Shown: positions 1-13,245 of the stretch, piece after piece
Position numbering within the stretch: position 1 is the stretch's first letter
How the letters are laid out: each line of letters begins with the position of its first letter
Source: an uncultured Mycoplasmataceae bacterium
Lineage (GTDB): Bacteria; Bacillota_I; Bacilli_A; Mycoplasmatales; Mycoplasmoidaceae
Length of the DNA: 64,000 nucleotides
NCBI GenBank assembly: GCA_949282725.1
Contig: CASDPP010000003.1
Location: 68,289 to 132,288, forward strand
Direction: 5' to 3'
Notes under the pieces: generated by a model
The model's database searches: none
Seen by the model: the letters and a program-made list of their open reading frames with translations, nothing else
What the model was told of the DNA's origin: nothing
Position numbers and translations under genes: made by a program

Positions 1-1192
<1,192 letters not shown>

Positions 1193-1203
<11 letters not shown>

Positions 1204-2008
1204 TTTTATCTAATGTTTTATATAAGTTAAATAATGCTTCTGTTGATAATTCTTCTGCTCTAATTGTTTCAGAAATATTTTTGTCTTTTAATACTTTTAG
1301 TGTTTGGTTCCCATATAATGTTTTTAAATTGTTATATAAGGTTTTTCTTTTCATTTTAAATGATTCATTAAGAAATTTAATAAATTTAGAATCATAATTC
1401 TTGTTATTTTTAATAATTTCAATAAATACTGAATCAACATCTGGTTGTGGTTCAAAGTTTTTGCCATTTAAAGTCATAATGTTTTTAACATCACAATAAT
1501 AATTAAATGCTGCAGAAAAACCATTATAATTTTTTGTTTTTGGTTTTGCTTTAATTCTTTCTACCATTTCTTTTTGTAACATGAAATAACCTTTTCTAAT
1601 TTTATTACATTCCATAAATTGAAAAAGTACTTGAGAACTTATTGAATAAGGTAAATTAGAAACTATAATTGGGTTTTTGTATTGTTTAACAAGTTCATCT
1701 AAACTAACCTTTAAAACATCATTATTAATGATTTTAATTTGTTTAATATCAATGAATCTTTTATTTAAAAATTCATTAAGTCTTTTATCAAATTCAATTA
1801 AAATTAATTCTACTTTTTTATCTATTAAAAAATCTGTTATTGATCCTAGTCCAGGACCGATTTCAATAATTAAATCCACATTTTTAGTATCAACCGCTTT
1901 AACTATTTCTTGACAAATGTTTTGATTTATTAAAAAATTTTGTCCTAGTTTTTTAGAAGGAAAGAAATTATTTTTAGTTAAATATGTTTTTGTATTTTTT
2001 AAATCCAT
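1193..2008 (-). CDS. rsmA: 16S rRNA (adenine1518/1519-N6)-dimethyltransferase
   Basis: 271-aa ORF with KKLGQNFLINQNI...IIEIGPGLGSIT (SAM-binding motif) and VSNLPYSISS, typical of KsgA/RsmA. Confidence 0.85.
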
Positions 2009-2014
2009 ATTTAA

Positions 2015-3163
2015 TTATTCTAAAATTAGTTTATCTAACTTGCTTTCTAAGTTGTTGTGTTTTTTTCTACTATTTAAAATAATTTTATGCATGATGTATG
2101 ATTGTGCTAATGAGAATAGAGCGTTAAAGAACCAGTAAACACCAACACCGGTAGCAGAAAATGCAACGATTAATGACATAACCCCGGCAAAAATGTTTTG
2201 TGTCAAATTCATTTTTTTCATTTGTTTACCACCTTTTTGTGATAATGTTGCAGCATTTCTATTTCTTTTTTTAGCTCATTTTTGTGGTAATTTCATTGAT
2301 AAAAACTGAGTTGGAATTACCAATAATAAAAAGAAAATATATGTTCAACCTAAGTTAGTGAAATTTCCAAACACTTGTGATAAAGGAGTATAAGCAAAGT
2401 TTCAAATCCCAAATAAAATTGATGCTTTTAGAGGTCTTACTATTGTTACCACACGATAAACAATTAAAAAGATTGGTAATGTAATAAACATTTGTTCAAA
2501 TGCAGCAAATGGTTTTACATTATTTTTACGGTATAGTTCCATGATTTCTTGTTGTTTTTTTTGTTTAGAAACATTATCTTTTAAATCTTTATATTTAGCA
2601 TTAATTTCAGAAATCTTTCCTTGAACTTCTGTCATCTTTTCATTTTGTAAAGTAGATTTTAAAGTAACTAAGATTGATACAGCTCTAATAATAACTAATA
2701 AAATAAAAATTGACAATAAAGCATTTGTTGCTCCAATTCAATTATTAGTTAATCACATTAAATTTAAAACCATTCAAGCGCCTGGTCATACAAAAAATGC
2801 ATAAAACGGTCCATATTCTAACGATCAATCACTAAATGTGTGAAACTGATTATACATTCCTCCTGACGATAAATCATATAATCAATTACCAGATGTACCA
2901 AAATTAAAACCAAATTCTAAACCTGCTCCTATATTAACGTTTGTTGATATTTGTGAGTCTCACATTGATTGAAAACAACCTCATAAACCCATTAACATAA
3001 AAAAAGCAAAAATTAAAAATTTAATTCATTTAAATGTTATTTTGAAATATTTTTTAAAGTTAGAACTTTTTGTTTTTGGTTTAGATCAAAAAGGACTAGC
3101 TTGATTGCTATCTGTAGAATTTGTTGATATTCTTTTAAACGATAGTGCTGTATTATTTGACAT
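2015..3163 (-). CDS. yidC: membrane protein insertase YidC/Oxa1 family
   Basis: Track fragments 2015..2221 and 2402..2716 are in one frame, and 2015..3163 is exactly 383 codons, joined only by TGA. The protein is hydrophobic and multi-pass with a basic C-terminal tail. Position rpmH-rnpA-yidC is conserved. ATG at 3161..3163. Confidence 0.8.
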
Positions 3164-3491
3164 ATAACAATTTTAACGTTTTTAAAATTTCTTTTTCATT
3201 TTTTTCAAATTGATCCGTTTTATATGATTGTTTAACATATATCAAAAGATCAATGCTTTCTGGAATCTTATTTAATTTATAAATGATTGCTTTAATTTGT
3301 CTTCTTATTTTATTTCTAATAACTGCTTTTTTAAAATTTTTTTTACTTATTGATATAGCAATTCGAAATTTTCCTGAATCGTTTTTTATATATTTTAAAT
3401 TAACAATGTTAGTAGATAATAACTTTTTACTTTGTTGTAATTTTTTGAAGTTTTTTACTCCACGCAAAGATTCATATTTTTTATTTTTCAT
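3153..3491 (-). CDS. rnpA: ribonuclease P protein component
   Basis: Basic 112-aa ORF directly downstream of and overlapping rpmH. It contains the RNR-like motif [13 protein letters not shown]. Confidence 0.8.
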
Positions 3492-3627
3492 CTGAAACAG
3501 TTAGTTTATGACGTCCTTTAACTCTTCTTCTTTTTAGTACTTTTCTACCTTTAGAAGTCGAATTACGAGACATAAACCCGTGTTTTTTAGCTCTACGTTT
3601 TTTATTTGGTTGATATGTTCTTTTCAT
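3481..3627 (-). CDS. rpmH: 50S ribosomal protein L34
   Basis: Hand translation gives [48 protein letters not shown]. It is below the ORF-track size cut-off, and its stop overlaps the rnpA start (ATGAAAAATAA). Confidence 0.9.
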
Positions 3628-3686
3628 AATAATAATTATATTAATTATAATTACATTTTTATTAATTTCATATAATATTAAAACAT

Positions 3687-5045
3687 ATGATTGATCTTAA
3701 AAAATTAAATGATCAGTTGGAAGAATTAAAACAAATCATTAAAACTAGTGATTCTGATTTTTTATTTTTTAATGAATTTATTAGTCCTTTAGTAATTAAT
3801 GACATAAAAAATAATAATATTATTATTAAAACTGTTAGCGATTGATCAAAAGTTAATTTAACTAACAATTATAAGCAACAATTTGATCAATTTTTTAGCC
3901 AAAAAAATAATGAAAAAATGAGCTGTTGTTTTGTTGGTAAAAACGAACAATTTAATGAAACTAAATTTGATGAAAATATAGTTCATGCTAATGTTTCTAA
4001 ACCAATAGGTTTAAATAAAAATTTTACATTTGATAATTTTGTTGTTGGTGGTTTTAATAAAACAGCTTTTAATGCATGCAAAACATTATTTAATAAAAAA
4101 ATTATGTGGAATCCTATATTTATCAGTGGAGATGTAGGGTTAGGAAAAACACATTTATTGCATGCTATTGGCAATGAATTTCATAAACTTTATCCTGAAA
4201 AAAAGATTAAATATATATCAGCTGATAATTTCATTAGAGAAATATATAATGCTCTTTCAAAAGACGCTAACACATTAGAAAGAGTAAAGGAAGAATATGA
4301 ATCGATGGATTTATTTTTATTAGATGATATCCAATTTTTAGAAGGAAAAGAAAAAATTAATGAAATCTTTTTTAATTTATTTAATAAAAATATCCAAGAT
4401 GGTAAAATTATTGTTATGACATCTGATAAAGATCCTAGTTATTTAAGAAATGTTGAGGATCGAATTAAATCTAGAATTCAATCTGGTTTATTTATTAAAA
4501 TAAAGTCACCTGAATTATCTTCTGTTAAATCTATTTTTGAAAAAAAAGTAAATGAATATGAAACTTCTTATATTTTTACACAAGATGCAATTGATTATAT
4601 TTGTCGTAGAAATGTTAGTGATATTAGAAAACTAGAAGGATTTATTAATCGAATTTTATTTTATGCAATTAATAATTTACCACCTAATGCAGTTATCACA
4701 CTAGATATTGTTAAAAATAATACGGAAGTTGAAAAATATGAAATGATTAAAAATATTGGATATGACATTGACCCAAGACAAGTTATTGAAATAGTATGTA
4801 ATATTTATAATGTTTCATCAGATTTAGTTACATCTAAAAGCAGATTAAAAAATTTAAATACTGTTAGACATGTTTGTATGTACATACTAAAAAGAAAATT
4901 TAATATGCCATATAACCAAATTGGTTCTTATTTTTCAGGCAGAAATCACTCTACTGTTTTAGAAGCTGTTGAAAAAATTAATGTGTTAATGGAAAAAGAC
5001 CCGAATTTAAAACAGTTTATTGAAAATATTTATAAAAAAATATAA
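3687..5045 (+). CDS. dnaA: chromosomal replication initiator protein DnaA
   Basis: Track ORF 3918..5045 has the AAA+ Walker A ([15 protein letters not shown]) and the C-terminal DnaA-box-binding region ([11 protein letters not shown]). An in-frame ATG at 3687 extends it 77 codons through one TGA. Confidence 0.9.
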
Positions 5046-5050
5046 TTTTT

Positions 5051-6310
5051 TTATATCTTAATTGTTTTTTTTCTTCTGATAATAAATCAAATTCCTAAAC
5101 TAATTAAAGATAAAACAATAGCTGCTATTCCTAATGATAACCCTAAAATTAAATTTAAGTTGTTGTCTTCTTGTTGTGAATTAACATTTAAAGTAATTGT
5201 TTCAGAATCAACATAAATACTTGTCGAACTATTTGTCGCCTTTAATTTGAATTTATATGTTCCTTCAACACATTGATCTGTTCAATATAATGATCCTTGA
5301 TTATCAATTGACAGCCAATCTGGTTTATCCCCTTCATTCATTACAATTTCTCATTGATCTGGGTCTAATAATTGACTATTAATAGAGTATTTTTCTGATC
5401 CTGATTGATTTTTTAAAGTATTTATATTTATGTTACCTTGTACTTGAAACGATTGAAATAATGAAATAATAGTAATTTGTTCTGCCGATGTTTTTTCATT
5501 GCCTAAATTAAAACCTTTTATTTGAAATGTGTATATACCTTCTGGTACTTGATTTCAATTAATTATTCCATCTGAAATTGACAAACCTTCTGGTATTTGT
5601 GTTGTTTGTTTTATTGGAACTAATGATCAATTTGTAAATTTAGTGATTGTTTCTGGACTAAATCCACTATAAGTAAATTTGTTAGTTGTTGATCCTGATT
5701 CTGTTGGTTTGATTTCAATTTGACTAAAATCACCTGCTATAGTTGCTTGAGCAGAATCATAACTTCATTCATCCACATTGCTTGCTTCAAAACCAAAATT
5801 CAACGCTGATGTATAATCATTTTTTGAATTACTTGGTACATATATTTTAAATAATGTAGATCCGTATCAATTTTGTCCAAATGATGGAATTTGTGTTGAT
5901 GAAAAAGCTATTTCACTAATTTGTGTAGGATTAAAAGCTTGTTGTCCGATATTATTTAATGAATTAGGTATCATTATATCACCTGATAAATTTGAACATC
6001 CAGCAAATGAATTAATTCCAATAGAAGTTAAACTTGTAGCTTGAGATAAATCTAACGAAATAAGGTCTGGTGTATTATAAAAAGCCAAATCTCCGATTGC
6101 TGTTATATTAGAATTTACTTTTAGCATTCCTTCGCCTGAGACGTATCCTGTGATTGTTGTCCCGTCAACAGTTACAGTAATATCACCCATAACTTCATTC
6201 CCATTAGTGGTGTTTTGGATATGAATTTTTTTTGAATTGTTTTGAATGTTTGTATTAACTAATATCGGACTAAATAATAATAGTGAACTAAGAAATGTAA
6301 TTTTTTTCAT
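5051..6310 (-). CDS. BspA-like leucine-rich-repeat surface protein with two Ig-like repeats and a C-terminal membrane anchor
   Basis: N-terminal signal-like MKKITFLSSLLLFSPILV is followed by LRR_5-type repeats (ITAIGDLAFYN..SLTSIGINSFAGCSNL..LNNIGQQAF). After TGA read-through come two He_PIG-like units (IPEGLSISDGIINWNQVPEGIYTFQIK and KPDWLSIDNQGSLYWTDQCVEGTYKFKLK). It ends in a hydrophobic helix plus RRKK. 5051..6310 is exactly 420 codons. Confidence 0.65.
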
Positions 6311-6588
6311 AATTTAATAAATTAAATTATAAACTATTTATTTGTTTATTGTTATTTATGATTGTTGTAAATAATTATAATTTTTATATTTTTTTATTAT
6401 TTGAAATTTTAGTTGTATAATATTTCTAACCTGGAAACGTTTTACAGGGAAAAAAATAAAAAATTTAACAAGAAGGCCTCTAATTAAGATTTTGATAAGA
6501 TTATAATCGCATAAATAATGATTTTAATTATCTTAATTCAAAAGTCTAAATCTTGCATAAAATTTCCTTCCTGTTTAAATTTTTTTTT

Positions 6589-6750
6589 GCTCTTTTTTTC
6601 CAAAGAGCACCGCTCTTTAAATCATTTTTTGCCAGTCAAAAAATGATATAATCTCCCACCGGGAGAAAAAAAAGACAAAAATTTTTTTGGCTTCGGGCGT
6701 GGCGCGGAAAATCGTTTCCGCAAAAATCGCGTAGCGCATTTTTGGCTGGA
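6589..6750. other. GC-rich cluster of perfect hairpins, possibly a structured RNA or miniature repeat element
   Basis: GCTCTTT(6589-6595)/AAAGAGC(6602-6608)/GCTCTTT(6612-6618) form two mutually exclusive hairpins. ATCATTTTTT(6621-6630)-GCCAGTC-AAAAAATGAT(6638-6647) is a 10-bp stem. TCTCCC-ACC-GGGAGA lies at 6652-6666 and GCGGAAA-ATCG-TTTCCGC at 6704-6721. By hand count, 6689..6752 is about 58% G+C in a very AT-rich context. Confidence 0.3.
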
Positions 6751-6757
6751 GCAAATT

Positions 6758-7237
6758 TTATATTTTCATCCGATAAATTAAATGAATATAATCTAAAATT
6801 TCTACATATGTTTCATTTGCTTTTTTATCTGAAAATTTTTTTTTATTATTTCAATTATTAAATTTTGTTTTTGTCTCTTCACAACATTTTAAATATGTAG
6901 ACCATATTTTTTCTTCCACATTTTTATCTCTTAAAAAAATATTTCTTGATTGATCATTATTTGAATAATCAAATTGTTTGTTTGGGTGAACAAAAAAATC
7001 TCTTCATTCTTTTATTCTTTTTGAATTTAAAATTTTTTTTCCTAAGTTAAATTTTTTTATAATGTCGTTTAAGTTAATTAAAATGGTTAAAAATAAAAAA
7101 TTTGATGCAAAATTTAAAAGATAACTATCTTTTTTTTCTTTACAATTATCTGAAATCATTAAAAGTATTAGATATAAATCTTTAGTTTCAATTAACTTTT
7201 GTTTATAAAATTCTTTTCTACTACTAGATTTATTCAT
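6758..7237 (-). CDS. hypothetical protein downstream of hsdR (Rx4H motif, possible HEPN-like)
   Basis: Track ORF 7004..7237 extends through TGA codons to TAA at 6758..6760, exactly 160 codons. It looks predominantly helical and contains WRDFFVHP (R-x4-H). It starts 25 nt after hsdR on the same strand. Confidence 0.5.
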
Positions 7238-7262
7238 ATTTTATTCTTTGTTTTAATATTTA

Positions 7263-10200
7263 TTAAAAACTAAAATCATCATCTGATATTGTGTAATATC
7301 TATCAAAAAAATTCTTAATTCTTTCAATTATTTTATTTTTTGTATTAAATCTTACTTTTTCTTTACTAAATCTAGATAATGGTGGCATAATCTTGGCAAT
7401 ATCTACACCATTTGTTTCAATTTGTCCTTTTTGAAAAGAATTTGACATAAATTTAATAGTTTCTTCTTTATTTAAATGTTCTTCTGAAATTATTTTTAAT
7501 AATTCTTCTCATCTTTTTTTTCTAATATATTGTCTAAATTCACCATAAACTTCGTTTGTTTTATTTAATATTTTTATAAATTCCAGAATTAAATCTTTTT
7601 TATTTCTAAGTTGAATATTAGAATCCAAAATTTTGTTTATGTTAACCAATATTTCTTTATCGTTTGTTTTTGTATATTTATTTAATAAATTTAAGATGTA
7701 ATCTATATTAACATCTTCCTGTTTGATAAGTTCTATTTCAAAAACTATATCATCAGTGACATCTTCTTTGTCAACGTGTTTTCTATATTGTTCATAAATA
7801 TCTAAATAAATAGATTTGTAATCTTGTCATTCTCTTTCTGTTAATATTTGATCGTTTTCGAATTCATCAAAACAACTTAAAATGTTTCTTACTTTTAATA
7901 TTTGACCGTAAAGAAAAATAAAATCTTTTTTATTTCTTTCTCCTATTATCTCTTTACCAATTGGATAAATATTTTTTAATTTTTCAATAAGTTTTTTGTA
8001 ACCTATAAATTCTTGACCTTTATAACTGTATCCATAATAATATTCATCATAAGTTTTTAAAATAACAATGTTTTTAGAGTCTTTATTACCAAATAATAAA
8101 AGAGCTTTATTTAAATTTTCCTCAAGATTTCTAAAACATATTATGTTACCAAATTTTTTAATATTGTTTAAAATACGATTTGTTCTTGAAAATGCTTGTA
8201 TTAAACCGTGATATTTAAGATTTTTATCTACTCATAAAGTATTTAATGTTGTTGCATCAAACCCAGTCAAAAACATATTAACAACTATTAATAGATCTAG
8301 TTCCTTGTTTTTCATTCTCATAGAAACATCTTTATAATAGTTTGAAAAATTACTTCCTGCATCAAATGACGTTCCGAACATTTTGTTGTAATTACTTATA
8401 GCATTTTCTAAAAATTCTCTTGAATTTTTGTCTAATCCATCTACACTATCACTATTTTCATCTTCAATAATTTCATCTTCTCCTTCATTTGGATTGTAAC
8501 TGTATATTAAACCTATTTTTAAATTGTGTTGAATTGATTTAAATTTAGAATAATATGCTTTAGCTAGTTCTATATCACCGACAGCAAAAAGAGAATTAAA
8601 TCCTGATAAACTAACTTCTTTCTTTTTTTCTCCTATGTTTCTGTTTTTTACTAATTTATTTATATTTGTTACTTGTTTAAATGTGTAGTTTTCACTATGT
8701 TTTGTATATTGATCAAAATGTTTTAAAATATAGTTTACAACATTAGTTATTCTTTCATCGTTATGTAAAACTTTTTTGTTGTCAATAGCATATACTTTTT
8801 TATCTAATATGTTTGATTTTCCTTTAAAAGTATTAATATAAGTTAATTTAAAAGGTAAAACATTTTCATCGTCAATTGCATCTATGATTGTGTATGAGTG
8901 TAGTTGTTCTCCGAATAAATCTTGAGTTGTTTGATAGTGAATTAAGTTTTCTTTAAATATCGGAGTTCCAGTAAAACCAAACATGTAATATTTTTTGAAT
9001 TTGGTTCTAATTTGTTTATGCATTTGTCCAAACTGACTTCTATGACACTCATCAAAAATAATAACAACTTCTTCATTATATATGTCGTGTTTAGAATTCT
9101 TTTTAATGAATTTATCTAATTTTTGAATTGTTGTTATGATGATGTTTGAATCAGGATCTTCTAATTGTTTTTGTAATATTTTTGTATTAGTATTTGAGTT
9201 AGCACAACCTTCTTGAAATCTGTCATATTCTCTCATTGTTTGATAATCTAAATCTTTTCTATCAACAACAAATAATACTTTTTTTATATATTCAAGTTGT
9301 GTTGCTAAAATAGCAGTTTTAAAACTTGTTAAAGTTTTACCACTTCCTGTTGTATGTCAAACATATCCACCAGATCCTTGTTTTCCATATTTTTTGTAGT
9401 TATGAGATAATGCTATTTTATCAATTATTCTTTCTGTGGCTACTATTTGATATGATCTCATTACTAATAGTCTTTCATCTGAAGTAAAAACACAATATTT
9501 AGTAATTATGTTTAGAATTGTGTGTTTAGAAAAGAATGTTTTTGTAAAGTCTGATAATGATTTAATTTTATTATTTTTACTATCTGCTCAATAATTAGTG
9601 AATTCAAATGTATTATTTCTTTTCTTTGTTGAGTTTTTTACATGTTCTTGTCTTGTTGTATTTGAATAGTATTTTGTCAATGTACCATTTGAAATTACAA
9701 ATATCTGAACATAATCAAATAAACCCTTACCAGATCAAAAACTATCTCTTTTATATCTAGTTATTTGATTAAATGCTTCTTGTAAACTAACTCCTCTTCT
9801 TTTTAATTCAATATGAACTAATGGTAATCCATTAACTAATATAGTTACATCATATCTATTTTTATGTTTACCATCATTATTTTCATATTGATTAATTACT
9901 TGTAAAGAATTGTTGTGAATATTTTTTTTATCAATTATATAAATGTTTCTTTCTTGACCATTATCTAATTTAATGTTTTTTACTCAATCTAATTGAATTC
10001 TTTTACTTTTTTCAACAATGCTATCTTTATTATTAGAAATAAAAGAATCAAAGAATAATTTTCATTCTTTTTCAGAAAATTTATGTTTATTTAATCTTTC
10101 AATTTGATTACGAAGATTTTGAATAAGTTCTTCTTCATTTTTAATAAATAAATAATCATAACCTTGTAGTTTTAAGTTTTTGATGAATTCTTTTTCTAAA

Positions 10201-10301
10201 TTTTCCTCACTTTGATGAGAAGTTTGTTTATCTGTTTTTTGTTTAAATTCTGTAACTACTGTACTTTCGTTATTTTCTGATATTGTTTTTATTTTGTTCA
10301 T
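7263..10301 (-). CDS. hsdR: Type I restriction enzyme R subunit (HsdR)
   Basis: Track fragments 10062..10301, 8232..9236 and 7263..7448 share one frame, and 3039 nt is 1013 codons. Hand translation of 9237..10061 shows only TGA interruptions. Motifs seen: [38 protein letters not shown] (Walker A) and [10 protein letters not shown] (DEAH box). Confidence 0.9.
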
Positions 10302-10304
10302 AAT

Positions 10305-10838
10305 TTATTCTTCCTCAAATGTTAATAATTTATTTCTATAGTATTCGTATTGTTTAGTTCTCATTTCTATTTCTGCTGGTATTCCTTCAGATAAGTCATT
10401 TACTAATGTATCAAATTTGTCTAAAATTTCTACTATTTCTTTTTGTTTTTCTTGTGGTGGAATTGGAATTTTTATATCTAAAATCCTTTTCATGCTTGGG
10501 TGTTTTATACCAGCACCAACAAAACAATTTTCTATAAAATTTTTATTAGATTGTAAAAAATAATAAATATATTTAGTGTTAAATTTATTTTTATCGATAG
10601 AAACACAGATATTATTTAAAGAATTTAAAAATTTTCCATTTCAATATTTAATATTTGCTGTGCCTCCTGTAGGTATTGTAATAACTTCATTCTCATAATA
10701 ATTTTTACAAATTTTATCATTTGTATACCCATTCAAAAAACCAGTTGATAATAATTTAATATCACCATCTTTTTGTATTAATTTTTTTAATTGTTTAGAA
10801 CTAATAGATTTAATATTTATTATTTTTTGTTGTTTCAT
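10305..10838 (-). CDS. hsdS: Type I R-M specificity subunit, C-terminal half (TRD2 plus distal conserved region)
   Basis: Fragments 10641..10838 and 10305..10493 are in frame across one TGA. It ends with IPIPPQEKQKEIVEILDKFDTLVNDLSEGIPAEIEMRTKQYEYYRNKLL, the conserved HsdS coiled-coil region. It has its own ATG at 10838, preceded by AAGGAATAGACAAA. Confidence 0.85.
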
Positions 10839-10873
10839 TTTGTCTATTCCTTGAAATTTTTTATTTCATTTTG

Positions 10874-11461
10874 TTATTTCTCACAAAGAATATCATCTAA
10901 TCCCCCCCCGTTATCTTTTTCTTTATCAAAATCTAATAATTTATTTCTATAGTATTCATATTGTTTCTTTCTAGCTGTAAGCTCTGCTGTAAGCTCTGCT
11001 GTAAGCTCTGTAAATTTATCCAGAATATCTACTATTTCTTTTTGCTTTTCTAAAGGTGGAATTGAAATAATTAAATTTTCAATTACCTTCTTTTTAATGG
11101 AAGGAATTGTTGTTGTAGTTTTTTTAGAAATTAAATAGTTTTCATTATTTTTAAGAAAATAATATAAAAATTTATTTAATAATTTATTTTCGTTTCTTGA
11201 TTTAATTAAAAAACAATGATAACCTAACCAAAATTTTGTTTTAATAAAATCAACATTACCCGCTGATCCACCTTCTGCTATTGTTATTGAATTTTCTGGT
11301 GCATTATATGTACTAAGATAACCTGTGGGTTTGGTCCCTCCATTTATTAATGGATATTCTCCTGATTTTTTAGTTTTATTTTTATTTACTTGTTGACCTT
11401 TTATTATTTCACAACAATCAATAATTTTTAAATATTCAATATTTTTACTATTTATTTTCAT
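10874..11461 (-). CDS. hsdS: Type I R-M specificity subunit, N-terminal half (TRD1 plus central conserved region)
   Basis: 195-aa ORF ending IPPLEKQKEIVDILDKFTELTAELTAELTARKKQYEYYRNKLLDFDKEKDNGGGLDDILCEK. It terminates 8 codons after the G8 tract (minus-strand sense). Confidence 0.85.
   Translation of the reverse strand: MKINSKNIEYLKIIDCCEIIKGQQVNKNKTKKSGEYPLINGGTKPTGYLSTYNAPENSITIAEGGSAGNVDFIKTKFWLGYHCFLIKSRNENKLLNKFLYYFLKNNENYLISKKTTTTIPSIKKKVIENLIISIPPLEKQKEIVDILDKFTELTAELTAELTARKKQYEYYRNKLLDFDKEKDNGGGLDDILCEK
10902..10909 (-). repeat. homopolymeric C8 (G8 in gene sense) at the hsdS TRD1/TRD2 junction
   Basis: Direct read at 10901-10910 is tccccccccg. A +1 length change reads GGG GGG GGG ATT AGA TGA TAT TCT TTG TGA GAA ATA ACA AAA TGA AAT AAA AAA TTT CAA GGA ATA GAC AAA ATG AAA CAA. 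This has no TAA or TAG and is in frame with the downstream half. Confidence 0.9.
10974..11009 (-). repeat. three perfect tandem copies of a 12-bp unit (gctgtaagctct) encoding (TAEL)3 in the HsdS central conserved region
   Basis: Direct read gives units at 10974-10985, 10986-10997 and 10998-11009. The protein reads ELTAELTAELTA. Confidence 0.95.
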
Positions 11462-11463
11462 AT

Positions 11464-13013
11464 TTATAATTTTTTAATTATTTGTTCTATTTTTGTTCTT
11501 AAATTATGTTGAGTTTTAACTATTCTATTTATTTTGCTATTTAATTCGAATATATCTATTTTTTCAGTGGTTATTTCTTTTTTTATGTAAGTATTTACCG
11601 CAATGTTATAATCATTTTCTTTTATTTCATCTAATGTTGCTAAATAAGCAAAATTTTCTTCATTTTTTCTTGATTTAAATATGTTAATAATTTTTTCAAT
11701 ATTTTCTTTTGATAATTTATTTTTTGTTTCTTTTCTAACAAATTGATTGCTTGCATCAATAAATAAAATATCATTATTATTTTGTTTATTTTTCTTTAAA
11801 ACAATAATACAAGTAGCTATTGTAACACCAAAGAAAAGATCTGAAGGTAACAAAATAACTGTATCAATAAAATTATTATCAATTAAATATTTTCTTATTT
11901 TTTGTTCTGCTCCTTCTCTATATAAAACACCAGGAAACTCAACTATTGCACACGTTCCTTGAGGAGATAATCAACTTAACATATGCATCACAAATGCTAA
12001 ATCTGCTTTACTTTTAGGTGCTAAAACTCCTGCTGGACTAAATCTTGAATCATTAATTAACAACGGATTACTATCTCCTGCTCATTTAACTGAGTATGGC
12101 GGATTTGAAACTATCGCATCAAATGGTTCATCATCAATATGCTTAGGATCTTCTAATGTATCTCCTAATTTAATACTAAATTTATCATAATTTACATCAT
12201 GAAGAAACATATTAATCTTACATAAATTAAATGTTGTAATATTTTTTTCCTGACCATAAAATCCTTTTTTAACATTTTCTTTTCCTAATATTTTTGCAAA
12301 ATTTAAAAGCAATGATCCTGAACCACATGCTGGATCATAAACTTTATTAACATATTTTCTATCAACTATTGTTAATCTAGTAAGTAATTCACTAACTTCT
12401 TGTGGAGTAAAGAATTCCCCCCCGACTTACCTGCTTCACTAGCATACATAGTCATTAAAAATTCATATGCATCTCCAAAAACATCTATGTTATTTTCTTT
12501 ATAATTTCCCAATTTAAGACTATCAATCGCATTTAACAATTTAATTATTTTTTTATTTCTTTCATTTACAGATGAACCTAATTTATTACTATTAAAATCT
12601 ACATCTGCAAATAATCCTTTCATACTTTCTTCTGAATCATAACCAATAGCAGAATTTTCTATACTTTTAAAAATGTTAGATAATGTAATATTTATATCAT
12701 CATCATTTTTAGCATTTTTTACAATATTACTAAAAAGTTGAGAAGGTAAAATGTAAAATCCTTTTTCTTGTATTGTTTCTTCTCTACCGTATTCTGCTTG
12801 TTCATCAGAAATTTTTTCATAATTAAAATTTACATTACCTGCTTTTTTTTCTTGATTATTAATATACTCAACTAAATTTTCTGAGATGAATCGATAAAAT
12901 AATAATCCTAAAACATATTGTTTAAAATCTCATCCATCTACTGAACCTCTTAACTCATTAGCTATTTTTCAAATAATTTTAAATAATTCTTTTCTTTCTA
13001 TTTCTTTAGACAT
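11464..13013 (-). pseudogene. hsdM: Type I R-M methyltransferase subunit HsdM, frameshifted at a C7/G7 tract (apparent phase-OFF allele)
   Basis: N-terminus MSKEIERKELFKIIWKIANELRGSVDGWDFKQYVLGLLFYRFISENL. Fragment 12372..12623 is in frame with ATG 13013 and ends ..EAGKSGGNSLLHKK. Fragments 12082..12312 (with the NPPY motif SNPPYSVK) and 11464..11853 are in the +1-shifted frame. Total length is 1550 nt, which is 3n+2. With G8 the junction reads [34 protein letters not shown]. Confidence 0.85.
12417..12423 (-). repeat. homopolymeric C7 (G7 in gene sense) inside hsdM
   Basis: Direct read is agaattcccc/cccgactt. It sits exactly at the frame break between the two hsdM reading frames. Confidence 0.9.
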
Positions 13014-13014
13014 A

Positions 13015-13245
13015 ATTTTTTTATTAATAATATTATATAATATTAACAAAACTATTTATATAGTTCAAGGCAATTTTAAAATTCTAATTTCATAGAATCT
13101 TCTTACCTTTCTGTTTTGCCTTGTTTTTTTTATATATCTGTTGTTGAAAACTTTGTTGGAATTTTGATTTTATATATTTATATATAATAATAAAATTAAA
13201 ATAAAATAAATTATAAATATAAAATATTTATAATATATATAACTT
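13015..13245. other. candidate oriC / DNA-unwinding region upstream of dnaN
   Basis: 231-bp non-coding spacer. TGTTGTTGAAAA and TTTGTTGGAA at 13139-13160 include TTTTCAACA, two mismatches from the DnaA box TTATCCACA. About 90 bp of almost pure A/T follows (13161-13245). The usual dnaA-flanking spacers are only 59 bp and 5 bp here. Confidence 0.3.

Follow-up and report, generated by a model that had tools for sequence, protein, structure and literature searches.

The stretch of DNA analysed here (the window, 64 kb) has a GC content of 24% and contains long reading frames only under genetic code 4, which therefore points to a Mollicute origin. Its minus strand carries an hsd operon in the order hsdM, hsdS (11461-10305 as a whole) and hsdR (Table 1), which is the typical order of type IC systems. 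For all three subunits, the best solved relatives are EcoR124 chains. HsdS matches EcoR124 HsdS (7bst_A) with E=4e-36, both conserved regions being aligned at near identity, and HsdM matches EcoR124 HsdM end to end (E=6e-172, 576 bits, versus 62 bits for EcoKI HsdM). The match of HsdR to EcoR124 HsdR reaches E=7e-246 and 822 bits, and no HsdR of another family is present among the matches listed. Pfam domains were detected in HsdS (Methylase_S twice), HsdM (HsdM_N and N6_Mtase) and HsdR (HSDR_N, SWI2_SNF2, T1R_D3-like and EcoR124_C, the last with E=1e-56). HsdS shows the type IC architecture of TRD1, a central helix with TAEL-type repeats, TRD2 and a similar C-terminal conserved helix, and its C-terminal conserved region is comparable to that of EcoR124 (29 residues each). 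Type IC was originally defined by genetic complementation and antibody cross-reactivity with EcoR124 subunits (PMC3874165); judged by sequence, architecture and gene order, the operon belongs to this family. The closest HsdM found in a genome scan shares 70% identity, and an exact-protein lookup with the truncated HsdS of 195 aa found no record. The 64-kb window contains only one hsdS, which rules out a shufflon with extra hsdS copies.

Within the central conserved region of hsdS, between TRD1 and TRD2, GCTGTAAGCTCT occurs three times in tandem at 10974-11009, followed by one more matching base (G at 11010). These mismatch-free copies, noticed in the original prediction, are confirmed by Tandem Repeats Finder, which reports positions 10974-11010 with a period of 12, 3.1 copies (3.08), 100% matches and a score of 74, the highest of the 150 rows obtained for the window. 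On the minus strand, the codons run ACA GAG CTT, then twice ACA GCA GAG CTT, and end with ACA GCT; the region is translated as DKF-TELTAELTAELTA-RKKQYEYYRNKLL. The repeat peptide corresponds to (ELTA)3 or, in the phase used in the literature, to two full TAEL units with TEL before and TA after them. GAG and CTT are rare here (5.3% of Glu and 10% of Leu codons, respectively) and each occurs three times in the repeat, which has a GC content of 51% within a gene of 22.7% GC. For these reasons, the repeat is no chance feature.

Two homopolymers accompany the repeat, and they are the only G/C runs of at least 7 in the 64 kb, where 0.044 would be expected. Their codons are rare as well (GGG, 7.6% of Gly codons; TCG, 3.3% of Ser codons). 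The first, a G8 tract approximately 65 nt downstream of the repeat, encodes a Gly linker and splits hsdS: G9 gives a full-length HsdS of 385 aa, while G8 or G11 yields a half-HsdS of 195-202 aa that retains the whole central helix. The second lies in hsdM, where G8 restores the frame and produces an exact match to EcoR124 HsdM at the motif. Given the frameshifted hsdM and the truncated hsdS, a silent system is predicted for the window as sequenced.

Table 1. Features of the hsd operon in the window; all positions refer to the window
Feature	Position	Strand	Remarks
12-bp tandem repeat in hsdS	10974-11010	-	3.08 perfect copies; encodes TELTAELTAELTA, the putative length-setting segment of the HsdS central coiled-coil helix
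Central conserved region of HsdS (PPLEKQKEIVDILDKF...RKKQYEYYRNKLLDF)	10928-11059	-	Gapless alignment to the central region of EcoR124 HsdS 7bst_A
hsdS reading frame as in the window	10874-11461	-	TRD1 and central region, 195 aa, premature stop; Pfam Methylase_S
Poly-G at the junction of central region and TRD2 in hsdS	10902-10909	-	G8 in the window (C8 on the plus strand)
TRD2 and C-terminal conserved region of hsdS (the latter 10317-10460)	10305-10901	-	Out of frame in the window; in-frame fusion if the tract is G9
hsdM, EcoR124-type N6-adenine methyltransferase subunit	11464-13013	-	Frameshifted in the window; intact in L087 (520 aa) and L089 (516 aa)
Poly-G in the GKSGGEFFTP motif of hsdM	12417-12423	-	G7 in the window; G8 in frame (ON), G7 and G9 out of frame (OFF)
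TRD1 cassette and hsdM 3' end	11052-11553	-	Unrelated TRD1 in the lineage L086/L087
hsdR, EcoR124-type	7263-10301	-	1012 aa, intact in the window

EcoR124I contains two TAEL repeats and recognises a site with an N6 spacer, EcoR124II contains three and recognises N7, and three are likewise present in EcoDXXI and EcoprrI (PMC3874165). The central regions of the window and of EcoR124 HsdS (DKFTELTAELTAELTARKKQY and DKFTALTAELTAELNMRKKQY, respectively) align without a gap, and TEL-TAEL-TAEL-TA in the window pairs with TAL-TAEL-TAEL-NM in the solved EcoR124 chain, which has two TAEL units. Because of this gapless alignment, the three DNA copies in the window are read as a 13-residue linker of (TAEL)2 length, i.e., the N6-type length of EcoR124I, and not of (TAEL)3 length. 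The two-copy state would correspond to a linker of 9 residues and the four-copy state to one of 17 residues, resembling EcoR124II; both lengths occur naturally in the family. The original prediction had placed a (TAEL)3 peptide in the central coiled coil of a type IC HsdS and had given two repeats with N6 for EcoR124I and three with N7 for EcoR124II. The type IC family, the location in the coiled coil, the threefold peptide (as (ELTA)3) and the EcoR124 figures all stand, while the length has to be corrected to (TAEL)2.

By its GyrB protein, the organism falls near Ureaplasma, Malacoplasma and Mycoplasmataceae MAGs (about 70% identity), and the GyrB search also returned eight near-identical sequences that form a cluster and come from ENA and Logan assemblies. 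The contigs of this cluster provided four further copies of the locus (L001, L086, L087 and L089), so that five assemblies can be compared, including the window (Table 2). Protein lookups with dnaN and gyrA gave two contigs only, and a metagenome scan with a 28-nt lineage-specific anchor adjoining the repeat gave no match. All comparison sequences are consensus metagenome scaffolds, in which homopolymer lengths may contain sequencing error.

Table 2. State of the three tracts and of hsdR in five assemblies of the locus
Assembly	12-bp repeat	hsdS poly-G	hsdM poly-G	hsdR
Window	3 copies	G8, truncated	G7, off	intact
L001	3 copies	G9, full	G7, off	broken
L089	3 copies	G9, full	G8, on	intact
L087	3 copies	G11, truncated	G8, on	broken
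L086	2 copies	G11, truncated	G9, off	broken

The metagenome contigs L087 and L086, which belong to the same species, show 0 mismatches across 19,174 bp and differ at two places only. The first difference is a 12-bp indel of exactly one unit, with three copies in L087 and two in L086 (FTELTAELTAELTARKK vs FTELTAELTARKK), and the second is 1 bp in the hsdM poly-G (G8 vs G9). The window and L001 form another clonal pair, with 0 mismatches over 17.4 kb; their hsdS homopolymers are 1 bp apart in length, and hsdR of L001 has an 8-bp deletion. In both pairs, hsdM and hsdS differ at repeat tracts only and contain no point differences. L089 is 2.6% diverged from the window, and all three of its hsd genes are intact and in frame. 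Coding homopolymers that differ in length between close genomes and thereby shift the frame, which is how phase variation is recognised, are found in hsdS (G8 vs G9) and in hsdM (G8 vs G9).

Copy number is therefore mutable in this species, as anticipated in the original prediction, which had proposed the strain comparison that now separates L087 and L086 by one unit. Because zero-mismatch pairs differ by one unit, both here and in two clusters of homologous proteins described below, the repeat changes at a rate no lower than that of point substitution, in the species as well as in the family. The operon contains three mutable tracts, namely the hsdM poly-G, the hsdS repeat and the hsdS poly-G. 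The third switch that had been postulated for this operon is thus present at the DNA level, next to hsdM tracts of G7, G8 or G9 and hsdS tracts of G8, G9 or G11 among the five assemblies.

In the same set of assemblies, hsdR has been inactivated twice independently by lesions outside repeats: the 8-bp deletion in L001 removes window positions 9719-9726, and L086 and L087 share an additional A (GAAAGA to GAAAAGA). Two such lesions, together with hsdM and hsdS genes that differ only at their tracts inside each clonal pair, suggest a drift toward a methyltransferase-only system. L086 and L087 also have a different TRD1 and a different hsdM C-terminus, combined with the same TRD2 as the window. 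One boundary of this TRD1 swap lies in the hsdM 3' end; the other coincides with the beginning of the central conserved region, some 55 nt upstream of the repeat when the coding strand is followed.

The hsd operon and a 159-aa ORF (window 6732-13140) occupy a strain-variable slot upstream of dnaN. Sister strains (L084, positions 164-8710; L090; L091), which are 99.6% identical in the dnaN-gyrA flank, contain a type II CRISPR-Cas system in this slot instead. It comprises cas1, cas2, a 254-aa gene and an HNH-containing Cas9-like protein (1156-1180 aa), and its array consists of a 36-nt repeat (GTTTTGGTGCTGTATCATTATTATGTAGGCAATAAC) and 30-nt spacers, with more than 40 units. In four short contigs of the species (L002, L085, L092 and L093), the sequence stops at dnaN or immediately upstream of it, which fits a break in the assembly where strains differ at this variable defence slot.

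A survey of EcoR124-type HsdS covered the best 120 protein homologues as well as 80 genomes from many phyla, which yielded 39 central regions. The linker measures 9, 13 or 17 residues, in steps of four: 13 residues in 27 of the 39 regions, 17 in nine, 9 in two and, in a single case, 14. The 13-residue linker of the window is therefore the modal state of the family. Linkers of 9 residues were found in six of the 120 proteins and are present in full-length HsdS of other species. The C-terminal conserved region is constant at about 17 residues in the relatives and is not repetitive, its period-12 run never exceeding 17 nt. In the central region, by contrast, a perfect period-12 run spans nearly the whole linker in 27 of the 39 relatives and extends up to 51 nt. 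Across lineages, 28 different repeat units occur, and the copies inside one gene are identical, which points to concerted evolution by slippage or unequal crossing-over.

The unit of the window, GAGCTTACAGCA, is common to six loci of Firmicutes-type genomes (L022, L037, L047, L048, L051 and L077), where it is present in three or four copies. The repeat block is identical to that of five of the Firmicutes-type loci at 38-39 of 39 positions and to that of L022 at 37 of 39, while the DNA of the flanking conserved region is only 50-67% identical. Selection acting on the DNA, allelic recombination and chance are all candidate causes of this near-identity of the repeat DNA despite AT-drifted flanks. 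GC3 of the repeat is above that of the adjacent TRD in 34 of 40 loci, and the GAG-CTN core (Glu-Leu) is retained in most relatives, including AT-rich ones. A recent horizontal import of the GC-rich unit is ruled out, as the flanks are fully AT-adapted and the higher GC3 of the repeat is found family-wide. Since the unit is common to Firmicutes genes and the higher GC3 is a family trait, the odd codons of the repeat are, on this comparison, inherited and not the mark of a recent local event. The original prediction had taken the perfect copies as a sign that copy number is recent; a reading of them as a recent local duplication has to be abandoned, because perfect copies are the norm in the family and the exact unit also occurs in Firmicutes genes.

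Single-unit changes are visible in the family as well. In two unrelated protein clusters, P0121 vs P0123 and P0030 vs P0128, sequences with 0 mismatches are one 4-aa unit apart. P0030 and P0127-P0129 are ENA metagenome proteins that represent an extended HsdS with three TRDs and three TELTAELT-type conserved regions; members of the cluster are one 4-aa unit apart in the third region and have T and A swapped between units, a pattern suggestive of exchange between the three arrays. The hsdS genes L047 (Desulfitobacteriia) and L051 (Haloimpatiens) have an identical TRD2 start, identical conserved regions and the same repeat unit, whereas TRD1 and the number of copies (3 vs 4) are not the same. 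This pair represents a natural domain swap combined with a change of the ruler.

Simple repeats are located 19-76 nt downstream of the central region in 14 of the 39 relatives, at the same junction as the poly-G of the window. These loci (L006, L008, L015, L021, L022, L024, L025, L033, L036, L044, L059, L061, L076 and L081) belong to many phyla, and the repeats consist either of a G or C run of 7-9 or of (AC)n, (AG)n, (ACAG)n, (GCAA)n or (AGAC)n. At the hsdM motif, homopolymers are rare among the relatives (1 of 79).

The reading favoured here, to which a probability of roughly three in four is assigned, is that the repeat serves as a length ruler of the central coiled-coil helix in a type IC HsdS, and that units gained or lost retune the spacer of the recognised site. 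Each 12-bp unit would add four residues, or about one helical turn, to the helix that separates the two DNA-reading domains. Copy number would shift by slipped-strand mispairing or by unequal crossing-over between identical units, and if the system behaves like EcoR124I/II and NgoAV, the non-specific spacer would become 1 bp longer with every unit gained and 1 bp shorter with every unit lost. The repeat thus very likely resets the spacing of the recognised site. The hsdM poly-G would switch the whole system on or off, and the hsdS poly-G would decide which HsdS is made: the full-length form, whose site is asymmetric and bipartite, or the half form, which should dimerise and recognise the TRD1 half-site as a palindrome. 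In a half-HsdS homodimer, repeat number should still set the distance between the methylated bases, as deduced from earlier work (PMC3874165). In L086 and L087, hsdS is in the truncated frame, and the unit change would act in such a homodimer and not in the context of EcoR124I/II. We infer both the switching rate and the biological role, which may be changed defence specificity or epigenetic phase variation.

A wider interpretation is put forward more tentatively and is rather doubtful as it stands. The ruler repeat and the tract at the TRD2 junction may form a conserved and selected two-knob specificity module of EcoR124-family HsdS genes in many phyla, in which the DNA identity of the units is itself under selection, for slippage and as a point of TRD exchange. 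The proposed selection on the DNA is based on the GAG-CTN core, which resists AT drift even at 24% GC. Combined with the hsdM knob and the recurrent loss of hsdR, the module would here act mainly as a multi-state epigenetic switch and less as a defence.

Alternatively, the operon could be decaying and mostly silent, so that the 12-bp indel and the tract changes are neutral slippage in pseudogenes. In three of the five assemblies hsdM is out of frame, in three hsdS is in the truncated frame, and hsdR carries two independent lesions outside repeats; furthermore, the whole operon is absent in sister strains, with CRISPR-Cas in its place. Only one copy-number difference was observed among the five assemblies, and it lies in L086, a contig with hsdM off from a lineage with a fixed hsdR frameshift. 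Because it is a lone event in such a lineage and contig, the two-copy allele could be neutral slippage in a silent gene. General decay is nevertheless unlikely. L089, although 2.6% diverged from the window, still has three intact, in-frame genes, hsdM is in frame in L087, and in both clonal pairs the differences within hsdM and hsdS are confined to repeat tracts, without point differences. Tracts of G8-G11 built from rare GGG and TCG codons at 24% GC are improbable without selection, and a methyltransferase-only phase-variable system would be expected to lose hsdR but keep hsdM and hsdS.

It is less probable still that a copy change simply inactivates HsdS, because a central helix of 9 residues would be mismatched with the C-terminal helix of 17 residues; the repeat would then produce an on/off lesion and no retuning of the spacer. 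Such an effect would agree with the constant C-terminal region of about 17 residues and with the rarity of the 9-residue state (2/39 relatives, 6/120 proteins), and how the register shift is accommodated has been called unclear (PMC3874165). However, linkers of 9 residues occur naturally in full-length HsdS of other species, EcoR124I is functional despite a 13/17 mismatch, and in NgoAV, strains that differ in repeat number also differ in the spacer of the sites they methylate (PMC6789123). There is very little to suggest that the contig differences are assembly or sequencing artefacts and that repeat number is really fixed: although the comparison sequences are all metagenome scaffolds and homopolymers are error-prone, typical assembly k-mers and reads are longer than the array of 24-37 bp, the indel comprises precisely one unit in register, and single-unit differences also occur between otherwise identical proteins of unrelated samples and in cultured gonococci (PMC6789123).

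If the length-ruler reading holds, the EcoR124 ruler operates in a wild, uncultured Mollicute and changes between clonal genomes as readily as homopolymer tracts. The three stacked tracts would then govern whether the system is on or off, whether the specificity subunit is full or half, and how long the spacer is. With a single hsdS gene, an organism with a small genome could in principle cycle through many methylation specificities, which is relevant to both phage defence and epigenetic phase variation. The pairing of ruler and junction tract is apparently common across phyla, and the hypothesis of Atack et al. 2019 can be tested on natural variants.

The individual elements are known already: the ruler mechanism, textbook knowledge for type IC, from E. 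coli and gonococci, the combination of ruler and downstream poly-G from NgoAV, and junction repeats from Atack et al. 2019. New are the uncultured Mollicute host, a single operon with three tracts stacked in it and the direct evidence from clonal metagenome contigs. The closest parallel is the type IC system NgoAV of Neisseria gonorrhoeae. It also has a strain-variable 4-aa repeat in the central coiled coil, LEAT being the same motif in another phase, and one versus two LEAT repeats lead to recognition of GACN6TGC versus GACN7TGC (PMC6789123). As in the window, a poly-G is located just downstream of the repeat; truncation of HsdS at about residue 201, to be compared with the 195-aa product of the window, results in palindromic specificity (PMC6789123, PMC3874165), in this case GCAN8TGC (PMC6789123). 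The window differs from NgoAV by its Mollicute host with code 4 and 24% GC, by an additional on/off tract, the hsdM poly-G, and by other TRDs.

The type IC prototypes EcoR124I and EcoR124II, encoded on plasmid R124, belong to the same family in all three subunits and share the gapless central region; there, a 12-bp repeat sets spacer length and is altered by unequal crossing-over (PMC3874165). Unlike in EcoR124, the flanking partial units are perfect copies in the window, and this is why three DNA copies correspond to the two-TAEL (N6) length. EcoR124 also lacks homopolymer tracts in hsdS and hsdM. Atack et al. 2019 (PMC7383803) catalogued simple repeats between the two TRDs of hsdS that switch between full-length and half HsdS; for Mycoplasmataceae, the survey lists AG[n] in hsdS and, in hsdR, tracts of dinucleotides. 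The genes in that catalogue resemble the one described here in that a simple tract immediately follows the TAEL coiled coil. There, interplay with the TAEL repeat was a hypothesis only, whereas here a TAEL-type repeat varies within a clone. Finally, truncated HsdS of EcoR124I(delta50) and EcoDXXI::Tn5, consisting of TRD1 and the central helix, dimerises and reads a palindrome, and in such homodimers the methylated bases are 7 nt apart with two TAEL repeats and 8 nt apart with three (PMC3874165). Those truncations are laboratory constructs, whereas in the window a natural homopolymer provides the truncation in a presumably reversible form.
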